Shown one piece after another: positions 3,301 to 54,900 of a stretch of 59,800 nt of DNA. Below the pieces are notes generated by a model. It saw only the letters and a list, made by a program, of their open reading frames with translations, was not told where the DNA came from and did not search any database. A program made the translations under genes and the position numbers. Position 1 is the first letter of the stretch, and the number at the start of each line of letters is the position of its first letter. Source of the DNA: a virus (lineage: Duplodnaviria; Caudoviricetes). The stretch spans positions 1 through 59,800 of the IMG/VR virus record IMGVR_UViG_3300044731_000564. One strand, written 5' to 3'.

Positions 3301-4766
3301 AAATATCAGAATTAGAAACATTTGGCAAGGTTCAGCCTCACGCCTTAGATTTAGAAGAAGCGGTTTTAGGGGCTATTATCTTAGAAAGCAATTACGTGCC
3401 TAAAATTGAATTAATACTTCCGAGTGATGCTTTCTATCACCCAAGCCATAAAACTGTCTATAAATCAATCCTAAGCCTTAAAAACGCAAAGTTTAACGTT
3501 GACTTGTTGACTGTAATTGATAAATTGAGGTCAAACCAAGAATTAGACAAGATTGGAGGTGCTTATTTTGTTACAGAATTAACTAACAAGGTTACATCGT
3601 CGGCAAATGTTGAGTTTTATGCAAAAATAGTATTTCAAAAATGGGTTAATAGGGTTTTAATTGAGATGTCAAGTAAACTTATTGAAGATGCCTATACCGA
3701 TATAATTGACCCATTAGAGTTGCTTTATAAGTCGCAAAAGAAACTTACCGATGTTGTTGAAAAAATAATAGGTCAGAAGCAAGTAGAGATGCGAAATGTT
3801 TATTTTGGCGCAATAAATAATATTGCAGAAAGGTTTACTAATAAAGATACGATTCAATTTACGGGTAATCCAACGGGATTTAGAAAGTTTGATAGAATGG
3901 TTGGAGGTAGAAAAAAATCAGAGTTTGTTATAGTAGGGGCTAGACCATCTATGGGAAAATCAACATTTACTTTACAAGAAGCGGTTACAATGGCAAACGA
4001 ATTTAAGATACCTGTTTGTTATTTTTCTATTGAGATGTCAGCACATCAAATGATTATAAAAACGGCAGCACATTTAGCAAAGGTTAATAGTGAAAATATT
4101 GAAAGGGGTCAGATAAATAATAGCGAATATGAAAATGTAATTCAGAAGTTAACAGAACTGATGGATGATAATATGCTTATTATTGATGATGGCACAGCAC
4201 CAACGATTACAGAGATAAAAACAAAAGCTGCCTTATATAAAGAAAAATACGGAATACAAGCAATATACATTGACTATCTTCAACTTGTAAGACCAACAGA
4301 AAAGGGAAGAACACGCGACCAAGAGATAGACGAAATAGGTAGAGGGCTAAAAGAACTTGCAAAGGACTTGGATATGCCTGTAATAGCGTTATCACAACTT
4401 AGCAGAGAGGTAGAAAAAAGAGCAGATAAAAGACCTATGCTATCAGATTTAAGGGATGGTGGTAATATTGAGGGTCATGCAGACGTAGTAAACTTTTTAT
4501 ACAGACCCGAATATTATGGAATATCGGTATATCTTAATAATAGTGAATTTTATGGATTAACAGAAGTAATAACGGCTAAAAATAGAAATGGAAAAATAGG
4601 TGTAAGTTACTTTAAGTTTAATAAAGAAATATCTACATTTGAAGAATTATCAGATAATGATGAGTATGAATTAAATAAACAGTCTTCTACCATAAAAAAA
4701 CAAGCAGCAGAATCAAAAGATTGGACAAAACCTAAAAGTAAAAATTCAGACGATATACCATTCTAA
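3297..4766 (+). CDS. dnaB: replicative DNA helicase DnaB
   Basis: PHALDLEEAVLG, Walker A GARPSMGKS, IDYLQL, ALSQLSR, RPMLSDLR, KNRNG; start placed at the ATGA overlap with the initiator stop; ends in SSB-like DDIPF. Confidence 0.97.
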   Translation: MKISELETFGKVQPHALDLEEAVLGAIILESNYVPKIELILPSDAFYHPSHKTVYKSILSLKNAKFNVDLLTVIDKLRSNQELDKIGGAYFVTELTNKVTSSANVEFYAKIVFQKWVNRVLIEMSSKLIEDAYTDIIDPLELLYKSQKKLTDVVEKIIGQKQVEMRNVYFGAINNIAERFTNKDTIQFTGNPTGFRKFDRMVGGRKKSEFVIVGARPSMGKSTFTLQEAVTMANEFKIPVCYFSIEMSAHQMIIKTAAHLAKVNSENIERGQINNSEYENVIQKLTELMDDNMLIIDDGTAPTITEIKTKAALYKEKYGIQAIYIDYLQLVRPTEKGRTRDQEIDEIGRGLKELAKDLDMPVIALSQLSREVEKRADKRPMLSDLRDGGNIEGHADVVNFLYRPEYYGISVYLNNSEFYGLTEVITAKNRNGKIGVSYFKFNKEISTFEELSDNDEYELNKQSSTIKKQAAESKDWTKPKSKNSDDIPF

Positions 4767-6026: not shown

Positions 6027-7562
6027 ATGAAAATTTGTATTACAACTGCTTACGATAGAAATTACAAAGAAGCAGGTAAAACACTATTCAATTCAATTAG
6101 AAGGCATACTAATTGTGAAGGGATAGATTTTAAAGTTATTACTTCCGACTTAGAAGTACTAAAGGAGTTGGGAAAAGAAAATTGTCACTTTGTTACTCCC
6201 GAAATAAAACTAAGATATAAAAATGTTAAGTATATCAAAGAACTTCCCGTAGAAAAATATGCTTCTTCGTGGTATAGGTTTGAAATTTTTAATATGCCCG
6301 AATACGATAGAGTTATTTGTATTGATTCTGACTGTATATGTGTTCAAGATATTTCTTACTTGTTTAGCGAAGAATTAAATGAATACGATTTAATATCTGT
6401 GGAAGACCACATTGTATCCAAAGTGTTTACTAAGTGTATGGATGAATTAGAGAAACAACAACTTTGTAATTTAATTAATCTTAGAAAAAGGATAAAGGAT
6501 GGTAAAGTAGACATTCAACCTGCCTTATTGGTTGCCAATAAAAGCATAGTCAATAAGACATGGTACACAAAATTATTAAACTATGCTAATACATCTCCAT
6601 TCTCTTACTCTATTGATGAAGGAGTTTTAAATGACTTTATATATATGGATAAATTAAAAATAAAATTACTTCCGTTAGAGTGGGACTATCAAGATTGCTA
6701 TGAAACAAATTGCCCTGAACTTGCAGTCCCATCTAATCCAATAATAATCCATTGCCAAGAATCTAAGCCATTTAAAAAACAAAAAATTAATTTAGATAAA
6801 AGGATGCACAAATGGCATGACCTATGGTGGGAAGAAAATAAGCCAATAAAAAATAGCAAAGAAAGTTTTATACCTGTCGATATAGAAACATCTATTACAA
6901 TTAAAAATAGTGTTTTAGATAAGATAGCAATTAAACATGAATCAGATAAATCTTCAAGATTTCATAACTATGCGGTAAAATACGACAAGATATTATCGCC
7001 ATACAGAGATACATTTAAGTCAATATTAGAAATTGGGGTATCTCGTGGGCAGTCAGTTTCTATGTGGGCTGACTATTTTTCAAAAGCTATAATTCATGGT
7101 GCTGATATTTCAAAGGCATCTCAAATTTGCGAAGCATATTCTGATAGAATTAAATTTCATTTGCTTGACCAAAGAAACGAATCCCAACTTAAAAACATGA
7201 AACAGTTTTCACCATTTGATTTAATTATAGATGATGGAAACCACTTTTGGCACGAGCAGATACTTACCTTTAATACTATTTTTTCATTTTTAAAAAGTGG
7301 TGGTATTTATATTGTAGAGGACACTACAACATCATATTGGAAAGAGTATAAAAATTATACTATTTCTCCAACAGAATATTTTAAAACATTAGTTGATGAT
7401 ATTAACTTAAAAGGAGCAAGGGGTGCAGTTCCAAAAAATCCACCAATAGAGTTTGGTGGATTCAAAGAGGGGTGGCATAGAAGAGAAGACTGTCATGTAA
7501 ATGTACCTGCATTTGAATCAATACAATTTATGAATGGATTTATTGTAATTTACAAAAGATAA
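6027..7562 (+). CDS. GT8-like glycosyltransferase fused to class I SAM-dependent (sugar O-) methyltransferase
   Basis: N-half: YDRVICIDSD (DxD), DEGVLN, IIHC. C-half: SDK...HNY, ILEIGVSRGQS, FDLIIDDGNH, LKSGGIYIVED. Confidence 0.88.
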   Translation: MKICITTAYDRNYKEAGKTLFNSIRRHTNCEGIDFKVITSDLEVLKELGKENCHFVTPEIKLRYKNVKYIKELPVEKYASSWYRFEIFNMPEYDRVICIDSDCICVQDISYLFSEELNEYDLISVEDHIVSKVFTKCMDELEKQQLCNLINLRKRIKDGKVDIQPALLVANKSIVNKTWYTKLLNYANTSPFSYSIDEGVLNDFIYMDKLKIKLLPLEWDYQDCYETNCPELAVPSNPIIIHCQESKPFKKQKINLDKRMHKWHDLWWEENKPIKNSKESFIPVDIETSITIKNSVLDKIAIKHESDKSSRFHNYAVKYDKILSPYRDTFKSILEIGVSRGQSVSMWADYFSKAIIHGADISKASQICEAYSDRIKFHLLDQRNESQLKNMKQFSPFDLIIDDGNHFWHEQILTFNTIFSFLKSGGIYIVEDTTTSYWKEYKNYTISPTEYFKTLVDDINLKGARGAVPKNPPIEFGGFKEGWHRREDCHVNVPAFESIQFMNGFIVIYKR

Positions 7563-7563
7563 A

Positions 7564-8883
7564 TTGATGAAAATAATAGTTGCAGTAATAATCTACGATA
7601 GATTTAATAATTTAAAATTATGGATAGACATTTGGAAACAATGTATTACAGATAATGCAGAGTTGGTTATAGTTCATAACTATAAAAATGAAGACGATAA
7701 AAAGAAGTACAAAGAGTATTGCGATGATAATAATATAGAGTGCGTTTCAAGACCAAACATAGGAATGGATATAGGCGCAATGCAAGATGTATTCATGCAG
7801 AGGCTAAAAGGATTTAATAACTCTTGGGATTATTTGCTTTGGGTTACAGATGATACAATACCTATCAATAAAAACTTTATTGAGCAGTATATTCAAAAGT
7901 TTAAAGAATCAAACAAGGTAGGAGTAGTAGCACTTGAAATATCTAATGATTTTAAAAAACATATTCGCACGTCGGGTTTTATGATACGCAAAGATTGTTC
8001 TTTAAAGATTGTGTTTGAATCGAATCCCGTTAGAACAAAAAATGATTGCTACCTATTTGAACATCTAAGTAAAAACTCATTTCTTGAACAAGTAAACAGA
8101 ATGGGTTTGATTGCAATTGATGTGTCACCAAAATTAAAAACAGCACCACTTTGGGACACCGAAATTAGGGCTTATCTAAATAGGTGGGTTGAGTTCGATA
8201 AAAACTTTGAAGACATTAAAAGAGTAAAGGACAAGGTAATAGTTATTTGCCCGATATATAATTCATACCCTCAAATTATATCATCGTTGATTTGTCAGAC
8301 ACATAAGAATTGGATTTTAGTTTTGATACATGATGGAAAGGCTTCGGGTAGTTTAAAAAATATAATAGGACACTACGCTGATTCAAGGATTATATTTTTA
8401 GAATCGGAAACAAGAAAAGGCAATTGGGGACACTTTTACAGACAGTTTGGAATTGATAATATCGACAACCTTGTTCCCGATGCAGAATATGTAGTTATAA
8501 CAAATGCAGACAACTACCACGTTCCTACCTACCTTGAAAAGATGATGGAAGGTTTTATTACACAAGATATAGTTGCTACCTACTGTTCAACAATGGTTCA
8601 TAGCTACCTTTCTCCACAACAAGTAACCTATTTAGAGGTAGGACAACAGTCATCAACAGAACTAAGGTGGGAAGATTATACATGGGGAACAAATCAATGT
8701 AAACTTGAATTTGGAAGAATTGACTGTGCAGGGATAATGGTTAAAAAAGAGTGCGCTCAAAAGGTAGGGTGGAACGATATTGTAACACATAGTAGCGATT
8801 GGACTTACATATCCGATATTATAAAAGAGTACGGAGAAAAGAGAATTAACAAGGTTAATGGTTGCCTACTTGTTCACAATTAA
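7564..8883 (+). CDS. two-domain GT-A (GT2-like) glycosyltransferase
   Basis: RPNIGMDIGA and WVTDD in N-domain; VIVICPIYN, LIHDG, ITNADNY, SDW in C-domain. Confidence 0.85.
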   Translation: MMKIIVAVIIYDRFNNLKLWIDIWKQCITDNAELVIVHNYKNEDDKKKYKEYCDDNNIECVSRPNIGMDIGAMQDVFMQRLKGFNNSWDYLLWVTDDTIPINKNFIEQYIQKFKESNKVGVVALEISNDFKKHIRTSGFMIRKDCSLKIVFESNPVRTKNDCYLFEHLSKNSFLEQVNRMGLIAIDVSPKLKTAPLWDTEIRAYLNRWVEFDKNFEDIKRVKDKVIVICPIYNSYPQIISSLICQTHKNWILVLIHDGKASGSLKNIIGHYADSRIIFLESETRKGNWGHFYRQFGIDNIDNLVPDAEYVVITNADNYHVPTYLEKMMEGFITQDIVATYCSTMVHSYLSPQQVTYLEVGQQSSTELRWEDYTWGTNQCKLEFGRIDCAGIMVKKECAQKVGWNDIVTHSSDWTYISDIIKEYGEKRINKVNGCLLVHN

Positions 8884-10135: not shown

Positions 10136-10198
10136 TCGGATAATTATATTATTTCATCGAATAGGTTAAAATATATATGTAATCAATATTAATATTGC
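10135..10198 (+). promoter_or_regulatory. conserved composite promoter, copy 2
   Basis: ATCGGATAATTA-N8-CATCGAATA-N25-TTAATATTGC, same architecture as 651-714. Confidence 0.65.
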
Positions 10199-12558: not shown

Positions 12559-12760
12559 GTATTCGGCAGGTACATTAGCTGCAAGGCTTATAGACTACAA
12601 CATGACCAATGAACAAGTAGAAGAAATAATTAATTACCTCAAAGCAACAATACAAAAATATGGACACAGAATACGACCTAAAAGAAGAACAACAAGGGGT
12701 GGAACAATTTTTAAATATAACAAGGTGGCACGAACAAAGGTGGGGAAAGTTCACAAGTAG
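12455..12760 (+). CDS. hypothetical basic protein overlapping both neighbours
   Basis: Only ORF covering 12559-12659; overlaps about 100 bp on each side. Confidence 0.4.
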   Translation: MINRSKKEEIKKLKRKLSKLKVKYLTYIEALSKYKYSAGTLAARLIDYNMTNEQVEEIINYLKATIQKYGHRIRPKRRTTRGGTIFKYNKVARTKVGKVHK

Positions 12761-13400
12761 CGAGAATCATAAGCTAATGGGTAGTGGAAGAAAGAAAGAT
12801 GACTTGTTCGGTGTGGCGGCAATGACTTATATAAATAAAAAAGCAAGTGAGATAGGGCTTAACTTTTACGAGCAACCCGAACTTGAAGAAGTTAAGTCAT
12901 TGCTTCATGGCAAGTACTACGAGGAACAAGCGTTTGAAAGATTTGTTTTAGAAACAAAGATTAATAACTTAGCCTTGTGTGGTAGCGAAAATCCGATATT
13001 CATACCAAATCAAAAGTATATCGAATATGCAGGTGGAAGTCCTGATGCAGTTTCTATTGATGACGAAGGTGGGCTTCCAAAAGTGATTGTAGAAATTAAG
13101 AACCCAAAGAACCCATCTATACACTACGAAAGATTATTTTGGAAAACAGCACAAGACGTAGAAGATAATAATATTCAAGCGTACACTCAAATACAAGACT
13201 TAATGTGGATATGTGGTTCAGAGATTGGATACTTTGTTTCGCATGATTCAAGAAGAAAGAAGAAAAGCGAACAGATAAAAATAATAGAGATTAAGCCCAA
13301 TAAAATATTTGTTGAAGACCTTGAACACAGACTATCAAAGGCAATAGAAATTATAGAACTAAAACACAAGATACTTTCAGATGAGCAAAAGCAAAACTAA
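12660..13400 (+). CDS. YqaJ/lambda-exonuclease family recombination nuclease
   Basis: WHEQRWGKFTSSE, HGKYYE, GGSPDA, VEIKNP, YTQIQ motifs. Confidence 0.9.
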   Translation: MDTEYDLKEEQQGVEQFLNITRWHEQRWGKFTSSENHKLMGSGRKKDDLFGVAAMTYINKKASEIGLNFYEQPELEEVKSLLHGKYYEEQAFERFVLETKINNLALCGSENPIFIPNQKYIEYAGGSPDAVSIDDEGGLPKVIVEIKNPKNPSIHYERLFWKTAQDVEDNNIQAYTQIQDLMWICGSEIGYFVSHDSRRKKKSEQIKIIEIKPNKIFVEDLEHRLSKAIEIIELKHKILSDEQKQN

Positions 13401-13668
13401 AATATTAGAGTTTCTAATTACAGAACACGAAGATTTTGGAAACATATCCGTAAGATTTTCGGTTATTAAAAAACAAGAAGTAATGGAACTACCTAATGGA
13501 TTAGGTCAAGAAAATTACCACGAATATTACTTTGGAGATTTGATGGCAGTAGTTGATTTAGATACAAAGAAAAATAGACTACAAGAAGTATTAGATGACC
13601 CTATTAAAATGCACTTAGTACAATCTATTGCCGAAAAACAAATGGTTGATTTATTTGAAATGGAATAA
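13381..13668 (+). CDS. hypothetical protein
   Basis: ORF whose TAA stop is part of the first TAAC core of the cassette array. Confidence 0.65.
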   Translation: MSKSKTKILEFLITEHEDFGNISVRFSVIKKQEVMELPNGLGQENYHEYYFGDLMAVVDLDTKKNRLQEVLDDPIKMHLVQSIAEKQMVDLFEME

Positions 13669-13699
13669 CATCTGTTATAAGCAGCTTTAATTTTAAAAT

Positions 13700-13903
13700 A
13701 TGGAAACAATATATTTTCAACCAAAAGGAATAAGACCACAATATTGTGAAGCAGGTATGATACACGAAAGCGACCCCGAACATATTTGGTATTTAGATGA
13801 ACCTTGCAAAATTTTAATTAGTGAGGTCAAAATAATAGCAAAAGAGAATGTTACTTATGACAAAAAAAGTAGGTCGTATCTCGTTCAGCAAAGTTGCTTA
13901 TAA
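13700..13903 (+). CDS. hypothetical protein (cassette 1)
   Basis: Flanked by GTTATAAGCAGCTTT / AAAGTTGCTTATAAC; stop lies in the TAAC core. Confidence 0.75.
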   Translation: METIYFQPKGIRPQYCEAGMIHESDPEHIWYLDEPCKILISEVKIIAKENVTYDKKSRSYLVQQSCL

Positions 13904-13945
13904 CGGTTCGCAGGTTCACTTAGTTGCGATTTAAAAACGAAAATT

Positions 13946-14131
13946 ATGATAACAGAAAAAGATTATTTAGAAGCAAAAAATATTGTTTATACCTATGAAA
14001 GTAAGCAATTGAATAAACCTGTTGTTATAAGACAGGTATGCACTATCGGAGGCGAATGTAAGGTTAGAGGTGAAAATAATGAATGTAAGGGAACTGCTTA
14101 TTGTGGGTATAAAAAGCATACTTTCTTATAA
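13946..14131 (+). CDS. small Cys-rich protein spanning a cassette junction
   Basis: Starts in the loop of one attC-like site, reads through the GTT core at 14024, stops in the next TAAC core; 4 Cys in the C-half. Confidence 0.65.
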   Translation: MITEKDYLEAKNIVYTYESKQLNKPVVIRQVCTIGGECKVRGENNECKGTAYCGYKKHTFL

Positions 14132-14180
14132 CGGACGAGGCTAAACGGTCGTTTTAATGCCGTTTTAGCCTGTGTTAGCA
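14126..14180 (+). repeat. compact attC-like hairpin
   Basis: TTATAAC-GGACG-AGGCTAAACGG-loop-CCGTTTTAGCCT-GT-GTTAGCA; one unpaired base in the stem. Confidence 0.75.
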
Positions 14181-14285
14181 GTAGTACGGTAATTAACCAC
14201 AAATGCTCATTCGGAGAACTGAACCTTTTTCTTTTCTTTTTTTTGAGCGATGGCAAAAATAATTTTGAAAAAATTAAATAGATTT

Positions 14286-15059
14286 ATGAAGTATATGGGA
14301 AGTAAGGCACGATTTGCCAAAGAAATATTACCAATAACATTGCAAGGCAGAAAGCCAAACCAATATTATGTAGAGCCATTTGTAGGTGGTTGCAATATTA
14401 TGGATAAAGTGAAAGGCAATAGAATTGGTGCTGATAGCAATAAATACCTAATTGCATTATGGAAAGGATTACAAGATGGTAGAGAATTGATAATGGAAAT
14501 ATCAAAAGAACTTTATAGTCAGGCAAGAAACGAATATAATAACCGAACAAATATAAAGTTTGATGATTTTGAACTTGGTTGGATTGGCTTTATGGGTGGA
14601 TTTAATGGTAGATTTTATGGTGGTGGATATAGTGGAACACACGGAAGTAGAAACTATGTTGCTGAACAAATAAGAAACACCTTAAAGCAAAGAGAACTGA
14701 TAAAAGATGTTGATTTTTACAACTGCAATTATTCTGAATTAGAAATACCAAATGAAAGTATTATCTATTGTGATATTCCGTATCAAGGTACAAAAGAATA
14801 TGATACAAAGGATAAGTTTAATCACACTTTATTTTGGGATTGGTGCAGAAAAAAGAGTGCTGAAGGACACGAAGTTTATGTAAGCGAATATAATGCACCT
14901 TATGACTTTGAGTGTATTTGGGAAAAGAAAATAAATGTATCAATTAGCCCAAATAAGACTTTACAGCAAACTGAAAAACTCTTTGTTTTAAAAAGCGAAG
15001 GGAAAAAAAGAAAAGAAAAAGATTTAACGCAGAAAACTCTATTCGGAGATGGAATGTAG
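14286..15059 (+). CDS. Dam-family (D12 class) DNA adenine methyltransferase
   Basis: MKYMGSK, YVEPFVGG (motif I), IYCDIPY (motif IV variant), VYVSEY, TEKLF; start placed at the in-frame ATG 14286. Confidence 0.9.
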   Translation: MKYMGSKARFAKEILPITLQGRKPNQYYVEPFVGGCNIMDKVKGNRIGADSNKYLIALWKGLQDGRELIMEISKELYSQARNEYNNRTNIKFDDFELGWIGFMGGFNGRFYGGGYSGTHGSRNYVAEQIRNTLKQRELIKDVDFYNCNYSELEIPNESIIYCDIPYQGTKEYDTKDKFNHTLFWDWCRKKSAEGHEVYVSEYNAPYDFECIWEKKINVSISPNKTLQQTEKLFVLKSEGKKRKEKDLTQKTLFGDGM

Positions 15060-15121
15060 TATTACTGCTAACTACCGAGTTTGCGCATACAATTTAGTGT
15101 AACTAATTAATAATCAAAACA

Positions 15122-15361
15122 ATGAATAATAAATTAAACGACATTCAAAACGATATTTGTACAGTTATACAAAATGGTGTACATAATAGTGAAATAGTAA
15201 AAACCATTGAAATAACAGGCAACTATTTGAACGCTCAAACAATAAGTAATTGGGCTAAAGAAAAAGGTATTGATTACACAAATGCTAAATACAGAATCAA
15301 AAGAGATAACTTAGAAACATTTGAATTATGGGGAGTTAAATTTGTAATAGACAACGACTAA
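15122..15361 (+). CDS. hypothetical protein (possible HTH)
   Basis: TISNWAKEKGIDYTNAKYRI resembles a helix-turn-helix. Confidence 0.65.
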   Translation: MNNKLNDIQNDICTVIQNGVHNSEIVKTIEITGNYLNAQTISNWAKEKGIDYTNAKYRIKRDNLETFELWGVKFVIDND

Positions 15362-15661: not shown

Positions 15662-15866
15662 AACACCACTAAGCGCAAAGGATATAGCAAAGTCTAACTT
15701 TAAACAGTTTGAACTATTACCTAAACACTATCAAGAGGATATTACTAAAAGTATCAACCTTGCAAGGAAAGATATATTGTTAGATGTATTAGACTTAATT
15801 AAAAAAGATACAGAGCCTATACAATTAAGAGTTATATTGTGGGATATAATGGATGCTATAAAATGA
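15648..15866 (+). CDS. hypothetical protein
   Basis: ORF coupled to neighbours. Confidence 0.6.
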   Translation: MSNLKTPLSAKDIAKSNFKQFELLPKHYQEDITKSINLARKDILLDVLDLIKKDTEPIQLRVILWDIMDAIK

Positions 15867-16288
15867 GAGAGTTCAGACCCGACCCGAAGCCAATAAAAAA
15901 AGAGAAAGTAACCGATAAGAATTATTGGAGCAAGATAAGACTTAAAAGTGCCAAGAAGAAAGGTATCGCAAAACAAGATACTAATACATTAGACGAAATA
16001 TTCTACAACGAAATTTGGCAATCAAAACCACATATCTGCATAGAGTGTAGAAAGGAATTAACTGTTTCATGTGAAACTGACGATAGCGATTTTACCTTTC
16101 AGATTAGATTCTATATGCACCATATTTTGTGTAAACGAAAATATAGTCAATTTAGGCATGATGAAAGAAATATAGCTATGCTATGTTATACTTGTCATGG
16201 AAAAGCAGAATCAGCAATATCATACCCCAAAATGAATTGCTATAATCAGTTAGAAGATATTAAAAAACAATTGCTTAACTTTGCTTAG
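15863..16288 (+). CDS. HNH endonuclease (Zn-finger type)
   Basis: CIEC...HHIL...N...LCYTCH; start placed at the ATGA overlap. Confidence 0.85.
   Translation: MREFRPDPKPIKKEKVTDKNYWSKIRLKSAKKKGIAKQDTNTLDEIFYNEIWQSKPHICIECRKELTVSCETDDSDFTFQIRFYMHHILCKRKYSQFRHDERNIAMLCYTCHGKAESAISYPKMNCYNQLEDIKKQLLNFA
16276..16283 (+). promoter_or_regulatory. -7 promoter element (TAACTTTG)
   Basis: TAnnTTTG 20 nt upstream of the tail-fibre gene. Confidence 0.45.
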
Positions 16289-44484: not shown

Positions 44485-45944
44485 TGGCAGAAAAATTTAC
44501 TATACTACCAAGCTTTGTAGGGCAAGAATCTAATACAGCAGTATTAAATGATAATGTCTTTGCTGATAAACTAATAGAAGCATCAAGGCTTAAATATGCA
44601 ATGGATGAAGCTAAACATCAAGCAGAACAAGAAAGGTTAGCAAAGTCAATAGACTTTAAGTCGGGGGATATACTACAAGTAGATATGGAGTATATTAATG
44701 GTCAAAGAGATGAATATTTAAAATGGATTTCTGCTAACACTGAATTATTAGCAAAACAAGACCCAATGACAGTTTCAAAGCAAAAGCAATGGAAGAATAA
44801 AATAGACACCCAAACAGATATAGCGATAGGAAGAAAGAAACAAGTAGATAATCAGCAAACATATCTTCAAACTGATGCAGCAAGAAGTTCGGGGTATGGA
44901 TTACAAGAAGATTTTGATGCAGTTAATAACTTTGCTAATACTCCAATGGGTGAATGGAAAGGGTATAATGCAAGAGATTTATATAACGAATTAACTTACT
45001 TTAAAGATTACAATATAGAAACACAAAAAACAGTTGATGATAAGGGATATACTAAGACTACAATAAACAAAACACCTTCCGAAGATATAATATCTATTGC
45101 AGACAAAAAGATTAATAGCCCCGAATACAATCAGTTAGTAGGACACTATTTAAAATTATCTAATGGTGCAAGAAACAAAACTACAATTGATGCTGATGTT
45201 GTATATTATGACCCCGAAGATTTTAAGAAAAATGGTGATATGGCAACACCTAAAGTAATTAAACTATCACAAATAACACCCGACAATATAGGAAGCATAG
45301 TTCCATATAAAAAATCAGCATTAGACGAAGCATATAAAAATCTTAAAGAGGAAGATAAGCAAGTTCCTTCAAGTAGTGGTGGAAGTGGTAGTGGTGGTAG
45401 CGATAATAAACCAATAACAAATTGGGTTTCTGATTGGACACTATCAATCGTTAATGACACTATAACGGGTGGCGTAGATGTGTTTGATTCAAGTTCAAAA
45501 ACAGTTTCGGGTAAAAGATTTAATGCACCAAGCGATTTAACAATGCCAATTGTAGGTTCTAAAAGTGGTGAAAAAGAAAGAGTTGTTGGTATATACAAGA
45601 AAAATAATGGGAAATACTATGTAATGAGAGATACTGATTTTTCTCTTAATAAAAGTGGTACTTATTCAATAAAAGAAGGCAAACAATTAGAAAGCGCTAA
45701 TAATGAAATAAAAAGTATGTGGACAGATGTAATTGCGCCTTATTATAGAAGCACATACGGAACTGCATCTGATACAGAATTAGAAAAATATAGATTACAA
45801 ATGTGGGAGAACAATCCACAAGAGGCTAATCAATTAGGAATACCAAAACCAATTAACTTTAACAACAACACAAGTACAACAAATAATACAAGCGGAAAGA
45901 AATATAAAGGATTAGATAAAAACGGAAACCCAATATTTGAATAA
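44484..45944 (+). CDS. putative internal virion/ejection protein
   Basis: Coiled-coil N-half, G/S linker; between ejection-like gene and giant gene. Confidence 0.55.
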   Translation: MAEKFTILPSFVGQESNTAVLNDNVFADKLIEASRLKYAMDEAKHQAEQERLAKSIDFKSGDILQVDMEYINGQRDEYLKWISANTELLAKQDPMTVSKQKQWKNKIDTQTDIAIGRKKQVDNQQTYLQTDAARSSGYGLQEDFDAVNNFANTPMGEWKGYNARDLYNELTYFKDYNIETQKTVDDKGYTKTTINKTPSEDIISIADKKINSPEYNQLVGHYLKLSNGARNKTTIDADVVYYDPEDFKKNGDMATPKVIKLSQITPDNIGSIVPYKKSALDEAYKNLKEEDKQVPSSSGGSGSGGSDNKPITNWVSDWTLSIVNDTITGGVDVFDSSSKTVSGKRFNAPSDLTMPIVGSKSGEKERVVGIYKKNNGKYYVMRDTDFSLNKSGTYSIKEGKQLESANNEIKSMWTDVIAPYYRSTYGTASDTELEKYRLQMWENNPQEANQLGIPKPINFNNNTSTTNNTSGKKYKGLDKNGNPIFE

Positions 45945-48900
45945 TGCCAAATGAAGAATTAATATTAGACGAGCAAAAGAAGCAACAACTTGATAGTAAT
46001 ATCAAAAATATGCTATCTAATGGGGCAACACAAGAAGATGTAATGAGTTACGCATCAGACTTTAAAACAAAGTACGGTCAAAAAAAAAGTCTTATTGGAA
46101 ACACTACCTCAAAAACTTTGGAGAATGGTGTATCAGATACTCCGAAAGTTGAAGATTTTGCTTCACAAGCAGGTGGATGGAGTGGTGGAAACAAGGAACA
46201 AGCACAACCACAAACAAAGCCACAAGAATTAAAGACACCTGCCTATGGTGGGATGAAAGAGAAAATACAAGTTGTAGATAATAGTAAAGATATGACTTCA
46301 TCTGAAATGAATGAAGTCGATAAGAATATTCAAAAAACACTAATGAGAGGTCAAGGATTAGTGGTTGATGATAATGCTGTAATTCCCGATACATATACCG
46401 TTGATAGTGATGTTCAAAGTTTTTTAAGTGGTATTGAAACAGATAAAAAAGAAGAAGTAGGTAAATACTTATATAATTTAAAGATTGGGAATAAAGGTGA
46501 GTTTACTAAGCTATATGATAAATATTTACAAGGTGAGTTAACCGAAAATGATAAATTTAAAATAGAGAGTAGGGCAATAAATAACAAGTTGCAGACATTA
46601 GGGAATGATGCTAATATTTACAATAAAAGAAACGATATAGAATTAGCCAATAATTCAATAAAGGAATATAACGATTTAATAAATGTACAAAAGGAGATAA
46701 TAAAAAAATATCCTGATGTTTATAATAAAGAACAAGCGGTAATAAATAATCAAGCTGCTTTTGATGCACTTAAAGAAATAAATCCAATTACGGGTGGTAT
46801 TGCAGAAGGTCTTAATAACCTAAGAAATGTACCTGCAAAATTATTTGTTGATGCACCTGCTACTATGGCAAAATTCTTTAATGATAAACTTGAAGAAATG
46901 CAAGGTCTTGATGCAAATGCTTATAGTGGTGCTGACAAGGCTTATGATGCAATAAGAGAGTTTACAGATGATTATTTAAAAATTCCACAAACACAGAAAC
47001 CATTATTTAACGATAAAGGTAATTTAGACTACCAACAAGTAATACCTAAAACAGTACAGACATTAGGCGATATGGCTGCCTTAATGATAATGGGTGGGAG
47101 ATTAGGTGCTATTGGGGAAGGTGCTGTATTAGCCAAAGGAACGGCTGATGCAATAGGACTAACAGTAGCAGGTTATTTATCACAAGTTACAGATTATTAT
47201 GATTCAGCAAAAGAATTAGATTTAAGCGATACTGATGCAAGACAATATGCAGAGAATGGTGCTTTTGCTAATGCTATGTTAGAAAATGTAAATCCGAATT
47301 TAAAATTTCTTAGAAATACAAATGCTATTCCTACTGCAATAGAAGAATTAATAAAACAAGGAATAAAGCCAACGGCAGGTGAAATAGCAAAGAAAATATT
47401 AACAGAAGTAGGACAAGAAAATGCACAAGAACTATTACAGTCATTAAGTGATTTAATGGCAGGTGTAGCAGCTAACCAACAAGCAGGTAAGCAACTATTT
47501 GATAGCCAACTATCACCTGAAAACATAAAAGAAACTGTAATACTTACAACATTAGTAACAGCACTTGCAGGTGGTGCTAATATATCAATGGAGAACCTTC
47601 AAAGAAAGGAATCTAAATATGCTTTAATGCAATACTTTAAAAATAAACCTACCGAAGTATTAGATGCAATAAATACACAAGTTCAGAATGGTTCAATTAC
47701 ACAAGCACAAGCAGATAAATTACAAATAGATTTAACAAAGCAAACAATCACTCAATCTAAAACACCAACTAATTTATCTGACGAACAAAAAATTGAAGTT
47801 CAACCATTATTAGAACAAAAACAAGAACTTGTAAAAGAACAAGAGAAAGTAGATGATGCCTTTAAGGGTAGTTTTAAAGAACAGATAGAAGTTATTGACA
47901 ATAAAATAAACGAAATAGCAAAACCAAAATTAGAAGAAATAAAACTTGAAGAAACAAAACCCGAAGCACCTAAACAAGAAGTAATATCAGAAGAAGACTA
48001 CGATGGACTAATAGTAATGCGAAATATAGGCATTTTAGAGGAAGGTGAAGCTGAAAAAATAAAAGCATACGAAGACAGTTTAGATAAAAATTTACAAGTA
48101 AATACAACCGACAATGGCAAAGAAAAAGGGCAAGAAGAAGATGTGTTAAGCACTCAAACCCCAATCCAAGAAGATATAGCAACTGAACCCGTAAGTTCTG
48201 ATGTTATGTCTGAAACACCTACTGAATTAAGAGATGTAGAGAGTACGGCTAAAGCGTTGGCGAAAATTGGGATTACGTCAAAAATACCTGCATCATCTGA
48301 ATACAAAAGAACTGAACCAAAGGAAGTTTCCGAAGCCTACCACAAAGCCAAAGCAGATGGTAGCAACCCTGAATTAGTGAATGCAGTAGAATCCCTACTA
48401 TCTAAAGAACAAACACCAAAATCAGAAAACAAAAAAGTTGATGTAGTAGGTAGTGGTGTAGTAGATAATAAAACAAAGCAACAGTTGTTGGATGAAAGGC
48501 TTGATAAAATAAAAGAAATAAAGGATAAGGCGGAAGGCACAAGAGAGGAAAGGACGAAACGGTATAAGGAGTTGGTAAATGAATTAGGTGATGAAACTGC
48601 CGCTTTAAAAAAGTTACAGGAAGAAATAAACGCAAGGGCAAAAAAAGAGATTGATAAGCTACCTGAATTGCCTAAAACAGAGAGTGAAGTAATCAATGAA
48701 AAAGGGGAGAATGATTTTAAAAAGATAAAAAAGGATTTAGGGTTTAAGTCAAATGATTATAGTTGGGGCAAAAGCCCTATGGATGAAGATATGGGCGATA
48801 TGCTTTTAAGCAAGGATAAAGAATCTGTTATTTTCATAAAGCCAAATGAAGTTGAAGTTTACGATGAGAAAAATGACCAAACAGATACTATTACAAATGG

Positions 48901-51900
48901 TGTAAAAATTGAATTAGTTTCAACTAAAGAAAGTTCAAGAGGTAAAGGGAAGGCAAAGGAAATGGTGCAGAAAGTTACCGATTGGGCAGATAAAAACAAT
49001 ACCGATTTACATTTAGACATTGCCCCACAGGATAAATCAACAACAGAAGCTGGACTTAAAAAATTATACGAATCATTTGGATTTGAATTTGATGGCATAC
49101 ATGGAATTAGAAAACCAAAAGCAGTAGAACAATCCATTGAAAATAAATCTATACCTAAATCCCTAAATGAAATAAAAAGTGGTATCTTTGCGTATGGGAA
49201 AGATAATAGTAAAACGACTAAGCGAATACAATACTTGGGGGCAAATGAAAGCACGTTGCCTAAACAAGACGCACAAGAACTTCAAAGATTACGGGGGGAG
49301 AGGGATAGCTATATCTCCGAATTGGATAAACAACTTCAATCAATTTCTGATAGATATGGGGAGCAGACCGACCCCGAAACATTCAATAGAGAGGATAGAC
49401 AACAATGGGGATTACTGCAAAGAGAATTGCAAGTGGTCGGACAAAGTAGAACAAAGTTGGAACAGGAGAACTACTCTAAAAGTAGAGTACAAGGGGGAAA
49501 TGGTAACAATGCTGTATCTGCAACAAATAACGGGGATAAAACACAGGAGATTAAGGGCAAGGATATTCGAGCAGAATATGACAGTAGAGGAGGCAGTAGC
49601 GAAACCACTAATGAATTGCGGGAGAAAGATAAAAGCGAACAATCCCTACCCACCCAAGAAGTAAAAGTAGAGGGAGATGCACTAAAAAATGTAGAATACA
49701 GTTTAATGCGACCAAAGACCAATGTATTAGTTTATGTTTCTCCCGAAAAATTATTAGAACAAGCAGCAAAAGATAATCCCGATTTTGATGTAACAAATAA
49801 GAAAAATCAAATAGGTAATCGTGTTCAAAAGGCAAAAGATTTTATAAATAATTACATTAAAGATAATAGGTGGATTAATCCTAAGACAAGAGAAAGAGGT
49901 AATACTAAAGTTAAATTTGAACCAAGCCAAGTAAGCGTTAATGATGGTAAAATAGGCTTTGAAGATGGCAGACATAGAGTTCTTGCTGCAAAAGAAATGG
50001 GATTAACTTCTGTTGGTATAGAAGTACCCAAAGAGCAAGAACAATATTTTAAAAGTAAGTTTTCAAATGTAAAAGTAGAACAAAACAAAAAAGAACTATC
50101 TAATACTTCCGATAAAAAAGACATGAAAGAAGAACGTGTCGAAAAGGTGGGTTCTGAAACATATAGAAATACAAAACATAAAGAAGGCAGAACTAAGACT
50201 AAAACTATTGCCGATGGAACTCAAATAAAAGGAACTTATAAAATAGTTTCTTCCGACGATGTATTAGCATCTCATAATGAAGAAACATTTTCTAAAACAA
50301 AGGGGTTTCCAACCGATGAAAAAGGGAATACTGTAAACGATAGAAATTATGAAACAGATATAAACGCACAATCAGAAGTAGGTATAATTGCAGAAAACCT
50401 CGATGATAGAGCAATTTCTCAAACACCAATAGTTACTAAAGATGGGATTATAGTTGATGGTAATAACCGAACTATGAGCCGTAAACTTGCAGCTAAAAAC
50501 GGTACTGATGCAAATTATATTCAAGCACTAAAAGAAAATGCAGACCTATATGGATTTACAGAAGAAGATGTTGATGCAGTAAAAAATCCAATGTTGGTAT
50601 TTGAGGCTAAAGAAGATTTACCTTATACTACTAAAACATTTTCACGTTTCAACAAAGAAGAAAAGAAAGCTAAATCACCAAGAGAGAAAGCAGTTGAAAT
50701 AAGCAAAACAATAAGCGATAGAGCAAGAAGAATTATTGCAGAAATATACGAAAACGCAGAAACTCCAAGTGATGTAACAAGCGACCCAAAGAAAGTAAGC
50801 GAATTAAAAAAGATATTTATTGATGAGGGGATAATTCAAACAAATGAATTGCCTAAATATTTTAATTTAGAAACAGGAACGGCTACAAGAGATGGAGTTT
50901 CTTTTATTGAAACGATATTAATGGGTAGCGCATTAGATGAAAATACCATTCGCACATTAGATATGGATGGTATGGGGAATGTTAGAAATATCATATTAAA
51001 ATCAGTTGTTAGTCTAACTAAAAATGCAGCACTAAAAGAAGATTCATTACAACCTAATATACTAAAAGGAATAGAATTAGTATCTAAGGCAAAAGCATCT
51101 AAAACATCTGTACTTAGCCTTATTGGACAACTTCAAATTTATGAGATTAGCAATTATAGTTCAGAAGACTTAGCTATTGCAATACTATTAGAAGGTAAAG
51201 GGTTTAATGACTTTTTAAAAATTTATAATTCCGAAGTAGGAACAGAATCTTTGTTTTACGGAAAAATGACAAAGGATAAATTAATCGACAATTTACTTAA
51301 TCAAAAAATAAAAAACTATGAACAAGTTAGAAAAAATTTACGCAATGATGCCGAACAAGGAAAGGGAGAAGTTCAAGATGGCAATGGAAATATTGGACAA
51401 GAAGACAAAGGAAGCGAAGCAAATAAAGGAGAAAAAGAAAATAAAATAGAAGATGAAGGTAGTGTTGATAGAGAGAAAGGTGTTCCTTTTATAAAAAAGA
51501 TATTTGATAAAATTAGAAGTATAACAAAATTAAATAAAGTACAACATAATAGACTTTTTGATATTGATACTAAATTATCAAAAGAAATTGCGGATGCTTA
51601 TGAAAAAATGAAGCACAACCCTAATAACCCTAAAGTAAAGAAAGCTTATAAGGCAATGGTTGAAGAAACAAAGCAACAATATGACGCTTTGATTGAAGGG
51701 GGATTAAAAGCAGAAAGATGGACAGGCAAAGGAGAGCCTTATGCAAATTCAAAAGAAATGCTAAGTGATTTAAAGGAAAACAATCATTTATGGTTTCTAC
51801 CAAATGAAAGTGCGTTTGGAGATAAAGATGCAGCTACAAAATATAAAGACAATATTGGTTTACAAGATTCAGGTATTACTATTGATGGGAAACCATTAAC

Positions 51901-54900
51901 TAATTCGGAAGTATTTAGAATTGTTCACGATGCGGTTCATGGAATAAACGGAAGTGAATTTGGCGCAATAGGAGAAGAAAATGCTACACTACAACATTTA
52001 TCAATGTATTCTGATGAAGCGTTACCTGCCGTAGTTGCACAAACAAGAGGGCAAAATAGTTGGGTTAATTTTTCAGGGGTTAACGATTCTGCAAATGCTA
52101 AATTTAAAGAAGCGGCTAAACTTGAAAAAGAAGGTAAATATGATGAAGCAAAAAAAATTAGGGAAGAAGCGCAAAAAGAGTTTACATTTGCAGAACCGAA
52201 AATAGGATTATTACCAAATAAATATAATTTTAGATACTATGGAACAAAAAACGCAGAACTCGCAAGTAAAGAGAGAACTAACACCCGAAGTGGAGATGGT
52301 AATAAGGGAGAATCCAAGCCATTACCTACACTCGGATATGGAAAGAATGTGGCAAGAGAATCAAAATCTTTCAGTTCAAGAAGCAATAGCGAAGGTAGAA
52401 CGATTCGCACAAGCTATGGGGATATAGTTCCTAAAGCAATACATACAGTTAAGCAATCGTTAGTTGATGGAATAAAAAAAGCATTCCCTAAAGCAACTAT
52501 TGATAAAGAACTTTTTGAAGTAGATGCTGATATTTTCCATAAAGCAGCCACAAAAGCGAAATCTGTAAATGAGTTCGGTGCAGCAGTAGATGTGTTGTCA
52601 CCAAAAGAATATTCTAAATATAGACTGTTTATAACAGAAGATGGATTGACAGGCATAGCACTATCACCTAACGGTGATTTGGGAAGCGGTTTTGATATGT
52701 CGGGCAAACCAAGAAGATTACCTCAACTATTAGTATTAGGCATTGAAAATGGAGCAACTCACGCCAATGCTTTCCACACAATACTTCCAAACTATTATAC
52801 TGCATTTGGATTTAAGCCCGTTGCACGTAATCTTTGGAACGATGCTTTAAAGCCCGAAGATTGGAATTATGAAACATTTAAGGATTTTAACAATGGCAGA
52901 CCCGATGTAGTTCACTTTATTTGGGATGGTGGCGATAGAAACACTATACATGAACGTATAGGTCAATTTGATAACTATAACGACTACCATAAAGAGCAAA
53001 CACCTGTAATTAACACATGGAAGGAAGCGCAAGAAATTGTACAACAATCCCTCAAAGAAACACCTACATCAGAAAAACAAAACAAAATATCCGATGCAGC
53101 CAACAAACTTGCAGATGACTTTGCAAAGAAGTTCAAGTCATCACCACCACCTAAGTTCTATGATAAGGATGGTAACGAAATGCAGATATTTACAAAGGGG
53201 GCAACGTGGAATGATATGGTTGATGCTATCGCAGAAGGAATTAGACAAGCAGGTAAAGTAGCACAAGGAGCAGTAGATATAGCAAAGGTAATTAGCGAAT
53301 ACCTTGAAAGTCAAAAGTGGTTTCAAGATTTAACCGATGCCAATAAAAAAATAATTACCGAAAGAGTAAAGTCTAAGTTCTTAGAGGAAAAATCAAAGGA
53401 GATAAAACCACCTGTTGAACCACCTACTGAAAATAAAAAAGAATTAGATAGTGAAGAATTATTACCTGACGATAAAGCATTTTTAAAAAGAGTAGCTACA
53501 TCTACTAACATATCTAAAGAAGCAAAAGATATTTTAGAGAAAGAAGGTTTAAAATATGTTCCGAGAAGTTGGGATGAAGCAAAGAAAATTGCACAAGAAT
53601 TAAAAAAAGAATTTACTGAAAGAGAACTGTTATCAATGATTGATAATGGCAAATTCAATAATGATATAGGAACATTTATCATGGCTGAAATGATGAATGA
53701 TTCTATGTTATTAGAAGAAAAAGCAGATACACCCGAAGCAAGACTAAAGGCTGCCGAAAAATCAGCAAGGCTATATATTAAAGCAGATGAAATATTTAGA
53801 GGTTGGGGTAGGGGTATTAATGCTATTCGTGCTTTCTATCGTGATTCACCATTAGGAGTAGTTTTAAAAACTAAAAAACAATGGGAGGAAAGAGTTGATA
53901 ATGCGCTTAAAGGTCAAGAAAAAACAATCAAAGAATTATTAGATGATATTAAAGATTCAGATGAGTTTAGAGATTTCTTGAATGAAGAAGTTAATAAAAA
54001 ATTAAAGAACAAAAAGCCTATAATTAACAAGGCAAGACACAAGAAGATAATTGACTTTTTTGATTCTTTGAAGTCCACTAAAGCAGACCCCAATAAGCCA
54101 CAAGCATCATCTATTATACCACCACAAATTTTAGATAACGCAATAGAGTTTATGAAACAAGCAACATTAGCAGGGTCTTCTGTTAATGATATTATTAGGT
54201 ATGGTATTGAACACATAAACTCAAACATAAAAGAGGCGTGGGATGAGAATGAATTTAGAAAAAAGTTTGAGCCAAAGATTCAACAGTTAATTGATTCATT
54301 AGAAGAAAATGATTGGAATAGTGTTATGCAATCATTAAAGACTAAGAATAAACAAGCCAAAGTTTCTGTTACAACAAAATATACTAACCTATTAAATAAC
54401 ATTAAGAAACTTTCATCAAATGAAAGAGCATCAATGGTTAGAGGGTTAATAGGTAATTTATATTCAGATAAGATAATAACTAAAGAACAGTTATCGGACT
54501 ATGTAAATAACGAAATAGATTTACAAGATATTATAGAAAGTCTTGATGATACAAATAAGGAATTAGTTATAAGTAAATTAAATCAACTATCAACTACTAT
54601 TGTATCAGCAAAAGAAGGAGCAAAAGGAGATGTTAATGTAACCGATATATTAAGGCAGAGGAAAGAAATGCTTGACAGGTGGAGAACTAAATTAGATAAA
54701 TTAGAACCACAAAAGAGAGATGATTTTCTTAGAAAAATAATGAATAAGGTTATAGAAGCAGGTGGATTAGAGTATGATGATTTTAGACAAATGTATGCAG
54801 AGGCAATAGGTCTTCCTGTAATGACAGATGAAATTGCAGCTAAGATTAAAGAACTTGTATTAAATAAAAATAAATTTGTAGAATCATTTAACAAGGCTAA

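Follow-up and report, generated by a model that had tools for sequence, protein, structure and literature searches.

Integrons are bacterial devices that shuffle whole genes, with CALIN being by definition devoid of an integrase, and integron chemistry involves cleavage in the ..AA|C of the folded strand. Shufflons and the Gin/Cin/Min systems provide a constant N-terminal coding part with alternative C-termini by way of a site-specific crossover within the gene, at which Rci or serine invertases invert oppositely oriented segments. Phage attC clusters have, to our knowledge, so far only been known as orphan sites usable by a bacterial integrase. Such integrase-free clusters are reported from virulent phages including the Polaribacter phage P12002L with two methyltransferases (Qi et al., 2023; PMC9892861), and one attC site of P12002L was recombined with attI1 under IntI1 (section 3.4 of the same paper, as far as its available text goes). 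According to the accessible part of PMC8876359, ORF-11 and ORF-18 of attI1 and the short ORFs of attC sites start in the recombination site, cross the crossover and serve cassettes without translation signals.

The window analysed here, the whole stretch of 59,800 bases of an IMG/VR virus record with a completeness estimate of 54%, represents part of the genome of a Bacteroidota-type phage from freshwater. Its long ORFs are all located on the + strand at a GC content of approximately 32%, the runs containing the stretch are freshwater and lake metagenomes, and the DNA of its methyltransferase matches phages of Croceibacter, Polaribacter, Flavobacterium, Cellulophaga and Bacteroides. Upstream of the ORF of interest (13946..14131, + strand) a YqaJ-like exonuclease is encoded (12660-13400, + strand), and an HNH endonuclease (15839-16288, + strand) is located downstream of the methyltransferase. 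Elsewhere in the window, ORF 45944-56998 constitutes a single frame of 3684 aa, and three successive small ORFs at 1200-1694 share an almost identical intergenic word of 19-31 nt (TAGTTAAAA.. ..AAAC) upstream of their ATG. Another intergenic word, TCGGATAATTA...CATCGAATA.., common to 644-735 and 10136-10194, was spotted by eye and was not recovered (~646, ~10136) by a fixed-spacing pattern search.

Region 13666-15072 is a three-cassette orphan array in which hairpin sites alternate with cassettes. Its cores are, from 5' to 3', TAAC 13666-13669, GTTA 13674-13677, TAAC 13901-13904, GTTA 14024-14027, TAAC 14129-14132, GTTA 14174-14177 and TAAC 15069-15072, and these delimit two types of modules, hairpin sites of the form 5'-TAACG, stem, loop, stem, TGTTA-3' and cassettes of the form 5'-GTTA...TAAC-3' whose own two ends are complementary. 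All features are on the + strand. The array opens with S0 (13666..13677), a minimal TAAC-ATCT-GTTA junction without a hairpin whose TAA is the stop codon of the 95-aa ORF 13381-13668; a similarly 'empty' junction, with GTTA directly after TAAC, is found in G004, one of the four viral contigs (G001-G004) that share the following hairpin site with the window. Cassette 1, a 231-bp A-module (13674..13904), possesses complementary ends (inverted repeat I11 of 15 nt, 93% complementary; 14/16 in an anchored test) and its own ORF of 67 aa (13700-13903). Next comes S1 (13901..14027), a long, B-type and attC-like hairpin site of 127 nt supported by its conservation and its 10-bp arm stem, which is composed of TAAC, a 6-nt spacer, the left arm from 13911, the loop, the right arm at 14012-14021, TT and GTTA. 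The subsequent mini-cassette, an A-module of 109 bp (14024..14132), is start-less, encodes a four-Cys tail with the stop codon in TAAC and has ends complementary over approximately 17 nt with one indel. The short hairpin site S2 (14129..14177) comprises TAACG, a spacer, a stem of approximately 10 bp, an 11-nt loop (14149-14159), the stem and TGTTA; loops of this type end in ATG, which leads to spurious ORF calls in short sites, for example at 4036 and 7626 of contig L169. Cassette 3 (14174..15072) encodes a D12-class (Dam-type) DNA adenine methyltransferase (ORF 14250-15059; Pfam PF02086, PHROG 56), with ends complementary at 13/16 and an arrangement like that of the P12002L methyltransferase cassettes.

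The ORF 13946..14131 of 61 aa combines two of these modules, an N-terminal helix module provided by the S1 loop and arm and a 35-aa four-Cys tail. Its ATG is located inside S1, whose TAAC is part of the core TTATAAC (13898-13904), the frame continues across the core GTTATAA (14024-14030), read as GTT ATA for V I, and the stop TAA (14129-14131) is contained in the core TTATAAC (14126-14132). An initial annotation had proposed that the start and the first ~26 codons lie in the loop and right arm of an attC-like site, which agrees with the pairing of CAGGTT (13911-13916) with AACCTG (14016-14021), whereby the right arm encodes ..LNKPV. Equally borne out are the attC-like architecture of a site whose GTTA core is spanned by the ORF and the course of the frame through GTTATAA at 14024 into a 109-bp mini-cassette supplying the four-Cys end and the TAAC stop. 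The mini-cassette (14024-14132), in which the initial annotation saw no separate gene, holds no in-frame ATG. Since the S1 start module is joined to a start-less tail cassette with its stop in TAAC, the ORF is, to judge from its sequence, a real composite gene. The 61-aa protein, the 67-aa protein and the alternative bodies described below matched no Pfam or PHROG family, and a search of the ESM Atlas returned a best score of 0.87 and no family. The AlphaFold model of the 61-aa protein (mean pLDDT 67.8, pTM 0.28) predicts an N-terminal helix and a small, poorly defined beta part.

Within the window, the 7-mer GTTATAA is not enriched (29 matches versus 25.0 +/- 5.8 expected, with 29 reached in 27/100 shuffles), and the folding energy of single DNA sequences is weak evidence (z-scores of -0.4 for S1, -2.4 for S2 and -1.1/-1.8 for the cassette). 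Exact copies of GTTATAAG, on the other hand, are clustered, 4/12 falling within 460 bp in alternating orientation (simulated P ~8e-4). The case is built on the comparison with other genomes and not on the window by itself. The lack of 7-mer enrichment and the weak folding energies would also fit a small protein family of the ordinary, non-modular kind whose inverted repeats arose by chance, a reading which we regard as extremely improbable, being contradicted by the switching of partners at the core, the co-variation of cassette ends and hairpins, the selection on the protein and the reading phase.

The block consisting of the S1 5' leader, the ATG and ~26 codons recurs with 82-89% nucleotide identity in the viral contigs G001-G004, can be aligned in the metagenome contig L033 and has a diverged copy in L034. 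These S1-bearing phages share almost no other gene: homologues in G001-G004 are limited to 6 ORFs of the window, of which the 61-aa ORF alone is represented in all four. The gene upstream of S1 is different in 7/7 contexts. Downstream, starts of the S1 family lead into at least seven different bodies: the window, G001 and L033 continue with the four-Cys tail, G002 has the initial part of the tail with a Cys-rich body of greater length fused to it, and unrelated bodies occur in G003/L191, G004, L034, L177 and L180. Across relatives, 95% of the cells of the 10-bp arm stem are paired, with two compensatory pairs; the copy in the window has two mismatches and a folding energy no better than shuffles. 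The loop contains an A-rich leader, the ATG and ~22 codons, and is predicted to function as a portable translation start of 26 codons, the last few of which are derived from the right arm and the core. This leader is less constrained than the tail (dN/dS 0.2-1.2), with the 5' untranslated part more conserved than the codons.

The junction also has a preferred reading phase. Among the ORFs that emerge from long hairpin sites and continue for at least 25 codons past GTTA, 29/39 read GTT as a codon, with 2 and 8 in the other phases, and in big arrays such as L169 the long sites regularly contain an ATG whose ORF crosses GTTA into the next cassette. As a separate observation, an ORF on the minus strand of L025 (G002; 7408-7740) reads through a degenerate left core (CTAC for TAAC) and the entire next hairpin, and its stop is the TAG within a GTTAG core, as in ORF-11 of attI1.

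The tail switches partners as well. It is present in 20/20 database homologues, eight of which have an S1-type N-terminus and 11 of which display nine other, unrelated N-termini with the joint at V(I/S)RQ, equivalent to the GTTA core, so that 19/20 homologues combine the tail with ten different N-termini at the core; the remaining homologue, P0020, is joined inside the module. P0020 and G002 represent the two junctions located inside the tail module, off the core. At the DNA level, similarity in six tail contexts begins with GTTA (ATTA in one) and ends with TAAC, and the neighbours of the tail cassette are six different right-hand sites in the six contexts and four different left-hand sites. 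Among the GTDB genome contigs no relative of the tail protein was found. Partner switching exactly at the PV|V junction, on which the initial annotation had made its proposal depend, is hence seen in both directions with GTT always a codon, and the comparisons indicate that exchange at GTTA has occurred many times.

The peptide encoded by the tail cassette is under purifying selection, with six synonymous and no non-synonymous differences to G001 and dN/dS ratios of 0/0.353, 0/0.216 and 0/0.281 for three pairs. At the same time the ends of the cassette co-vary as a stem, GTTA-TAA.. occurring with ..TTA-TAAC or GTTA-GCA.. with ..TGC-TAAC, which is reflected in the second versus the last residue of the tail protein (I/T/K with L in 12/12 cases and S/R with C in 6/6). 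The four-Cys tail is expected to be a putative small metal-binding C-terminal module on short early proteins. Terminal inverted repeats and near-identical copies (~86-96% nucleotide identity) in many unrelated contexts, always read in frame, could also be expected of a selfish miniature inverted-repeat element that inserts the 109 bp in frame at the 3' ends of genes, with the Rickettsia palindromic elements as an analogue. We consider such an origin very improbable, as the window and every relative contain the cassette only once, six junction pairs are without a target-site duplication, the peptide is under strong purifying selection and the same cores delimit hundreds of different cassettes besides this one.

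Complementary ends are a general feature of the cassettes. In an anchored inverted-pair test covering 196 kb of five phages, GTTA ranked first among 256 cores, with 17 of 3883 examined GTTA pairs complementary at >=14/16 positions versus ~1.3 expected and 0-1 in 20 shuffles. The complementarity spans 15-29 nt, compared to 7 for the corresponding feature of integrons, and different cassettes can share identical 16-nt ends and nearly identical hairpins of 48 nt. Wobble pairs in the cassette ends are predominantly G.T and not A.C when read on the + strand (66 versus 13), an excess which points to the + strand as the strand that folds. For the 67-aa protein encoded by cassette 1, viral contigs contain 84 relatives, and 12/75 loci analysed passed the core filter. 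Eight of these twelve (L277, L278, L280, L290, L292, L294, L297 and L343) have complementary, co-varying ends (13-15 of 18) which fall into three co-varying types, and the other 4/12 reach only 8 of 18; in most other loci within L277-L356 the 67-aa gene is a plain gene. A family that includes plain genes alongside cassettes with matched ends might provide a case series on the birth of cassettes.

Short hairpin sites of the S2 type are widespread. A pattern search in viral contigs yielded at least 144 matches in at least 119 loci, and in at least 135 of these matches a stem of >=6 bp adjoins the loop. Among 94 distinct sequences 12/12 stem pairs co-vary, with 355 compensatory cells versus 115 +/- 11 after shuffling, a value reached in 0/500 shuffles, and a near-invariant G.T pair adjoins the core (TAACG/TGTTA). 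Strict hairpin sites number 22 for TAAC/GTTA versus 0-8 for 11 control cores. In bacterial contigs, 71/122 pattern matches are without an adequate stem and are attributed to chance (for example in Helicobacter), so the analysis was confined to the 51 matches, mostly from Bacteroidota, whose stem has >=6 bp. Rfam, which is without an attC model, gave no family at the gathering threshold or at E up to 10, three weak matches being due to chance.

Alternative neighbours of the array modules are also found in lake water. Logan contigs from four lake runs match the window and then depart from its sequence at 13894/13900, 14133, 14173 and 15069/15074, which correspond to cores, and the summed contig depth peaks at S1, 14160-14263 and 14992-15095, with uncovered bins in contig runs being ignored. 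As assembled contigs and not reads, these data show alternative neighbours rather than events. A joint from 13925 to 14007 is distrusted, as it derives from a single contig with a 25-nt side. Many lake contigs part from the window outside the cores, at 14242; the 70-nt leader after S2 (14173-14242) is a repeated 5' leader with a summed depth of up to 100 versus ~15.

The window record (54% complete), the complete 35-kb G001 and G002-G004 contain no tyrosine or serine recombinase and no Y1 transposase; PF00589 has no match in any of the five and, in a search restricted to this model, none in P12002L. Two array-rich contigs, L357 (3957-4763) and L358 (4242-5039), nevertheless encode a tyrosine recombinase of 265-268 aa that is Xer-like, with best matches to XerA (184-194 bits, cut-off 220), XerC/D and the integron integrase (151-159 bits, cut-off 265). 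Relatives of the 265-aa protein are encoded at 44 loci (L359-L402) in viral contigs, large phage contigs of up to ~290 kb. The 5' side of these 44 loci holds 121 strict hairpin sites in 149.7 kb versus one in 200 kb on the 3' side, and among loci with >=1.5 kb of 5' flank, 27/31 have at least one site and 21 at least two. The arrays are co-directional with the recombinase gene (loop words 32 versus 0; ORFs 64.5 versus 9.1 kb), which points away from the array as intI does. Just ahead of the gene, the arrays end in the TAAC of the last cassette and a conserved TAT-rich word that the window does not contain; in 27/35 loci TAAC+TAT occurs no more than 130 nt from the start of the match, and the other eight have near variants. 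The enzyme could be a dimer-resolution or lysogeny enzyme which is merely located beside the arrays. In contig 29 of a Flavivirga genome (G005), six short matches to tyrosine-recombinase C-termini occur every 1.4-4.5 kb at ~215-230 kb.

Several of these features would be compatible with hairpins that act mainly at the RNA level in early transcripts, in processing, termination or translation start, similar to the PeSLs of T4-type phages, with modules shuffled as a by-product by relaxed homologous recombination or template switching at short conserved linkers, through RecT/YqaJ-type functions and without a site-specific enzyme. The YqaJ-like exonuclease in the window, the wobble bias in favour of the sense strand together with the near-invariant core-adjacent G.T, the identical ends and near-identical hairpins on different cassettes and the occurrence of sites in phages without any recombinase are in line with such a mode, and T4-type PeSLs mediate such shuffling and form mini-circles, as described in the available portions of PMC2839356 and PMC4122927. 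We nevertheless hold a regulatory role with incidental shuffling to be unlikely. Region 13300-15300 contains no intrinsic terminators and eight sigma-70-type promoters versus 10.5 +/- 3.6 expected, in a scan that does not cover Bacteroidota promoters; the junctions of new adjacencies share 4-8 nt only; and neither the matched 'barcode' ends of each cassette nor the 121-to-1 association with the recombinase and the conserved terminal TAAC site are explained by it.

In the reading as a canonical integron or CALIN, to which the proposal of the initial annotation belongs, S1 would be the attC site of the upstream 67-aa cassette, the crossover would be G|TTA at 14024 and a host integron integrase would move cassettes, each event re-joining an N-terminal module to a new C-terminus. 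The attC-like architecture, the complementarity of the cassette start to its own 3' end and the observed GTTA switching agree with it; the comparison with G004, relative to which the mini-cassette and the S2 centre of the window lie between S1 and a GTTAGCAGTAGT.. cassette start, can be read in this way, and IntI1 recombined the P12002L phage site at G|TT, as given in the accessible text of PMC9892861. We nonetheless consider it quite improbable. S1 does not travel with an upstream cassette nor the tail cassette with its right-hand site, each having a different such neighbour in every context; the wobble bias designates the + strand, opposite to the canonical bottom strand for this orientation; and 5/5 Flavobacteriales genomes with S2-type sites lack an integron integrase over the cut-off (TIGR02249, best 122.6 of 265 bits).

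The main crossover is probably TAA|C rather than G|TTA. This assignment derives from the folding of the + strand and from the recombinase pointing away from the array, assuming an integron-like chemistry. G|TTA, the working boundary in the canonical reading, would be abandoned in view of the wobble bias, the geometry of the arrays relative to the recombinase and a TAAC-bounded block of S1 and mini-cassette which is common to the window, G001 and L033 with different sequence outside. A TAA|C crossover would make S1 and the tail one cassette of 228 bp (13904..14131, + strand), the mobile unit being a hairpin site plus the next cassette, and the GTTA within the ORF would be a secondary, evolutionary junction and not a working cassette boundary. 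Such a unit fits both the S1-plus-tail block that is kept intact and the predominance of left-only linkage (7 cases versus 1 of right-only linkage, of which only ~3 versus 1 are independent). In 12/30 homologous cassette pairs both neighbours differ, and no single mobility unit fits all data.

The best explanation, which we regard as fairly probable, is that the locus is an orphan array of an integron-like cassette system of Bacteroidota phages, with ORF 13946-14131 as a composite gene. In such a system, the Xer-like recombinase of a phage, or a host enzyme where the phage is without one, would act on the folded + strand with TAA|C as the crossover; what usually moves would be a hairpin site with the following cassette, here S1 and the tail (13904-14131), and a rarer exchange at the inner GTTA would create new combinations of N- and C-termini. 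Combinatorial protein building as originally proposed is thereby retained as an evolutionary pattern and not in its details, as the integrase is absent and the boundary is probably a different one. An actively reshuffling array is not supported, since the window contains no integrase or known site-specific recombinase and the phage gives no sign of ongoing reshuffling. In a wider and more tentative proposal, Bacteroidota phages may possess an integron-like capture system of their own, with the Xer-like recombinase, a terminal TAAC+TAT-rich site and co-directional arrays, in which hairpins serve as start modules of fixed phase and the exchange of cassettes assembles small proteins combinatorially, as a DNA-level analogue of exon shuffling, orphan arrays being stocked from the pool.

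Of the systems described, the integrase-free cluster of P12002L, a Flavobacteriia-type lytic phage, is closest, with TAACG..stem..GTTA sites that flank small cassettes including DNA methyltransferases. The window methyltransferase is ~70% identical in DNA to that of P12002L, whose homologous region contains TAACG..hairpin..GTTA sites and cassette ends complementary over 29 nt, and attC1 and attC2 of P12002L appear to be the hairpins seen in L037. The available text of PMC9892861 mentions neither a linked recombinase nor start-less cassettes, ORFs starting in a site or cassette ends complementary over a long stretch, and our literature searches returned no account of phages with a linked recombinase, start modules or tail cassettes devoid of a start. 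Like attC sites, S1 and S2 are imperfect palindromes with conserved ..AAC/GTT.. cores, a variable centre and co-varying stems, and the 5' core of a cassette pairs with the inverse core at the 3' end of the same cassette. An ORF and its downstream attC moving as one unit, as in integrons, was not found, linkage being if anything to the upstream site, and the phages and Flavobacteriales genomes searched encode no IntI over the cut-off.

Integrons also comprise fused cassettes, and the ORFs of their sites likewise have their own start in the site, with the inserted cassette supplying the stop or the rest of the frame, but as far as the accessible part of PMC8876359 goes they encode a short coupling peptide, whereas the phage site module constitutes the N-terminus of a conserved protein. 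The phage system further differs from integrons in its uniform junction phase, in a recombinase that is not IntI and in cargo co-directional with the recombinase. The PeSLs of T4-type phages resemble the array as short repeated stem-loops between small accessory genes in hyperplastic regions and as points of modular exchange, but are, in the consulted portions of PMC2839356 and PMC4122927, units of promoter and terminator exchanged by homologous recombination; the array is distinguished by invariant TAAC/GTTA cores, matched cassette ends and ORFs that cross sites. Compared to shufflons and Gin/Cin/Min, all modules are on one strand and no invertase was found in the window. With recombination sites that carry gene starts and start-less tail cassettes, a machinery for the reordering of genes would also build new small proteins, in lytic phages whose fast-evolving early region is the usual location of anti-defence genes. 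Arrays that lie next to the gene of a recombinase other than IntI suggest a capture system that is independent and carried by the phages themselves.
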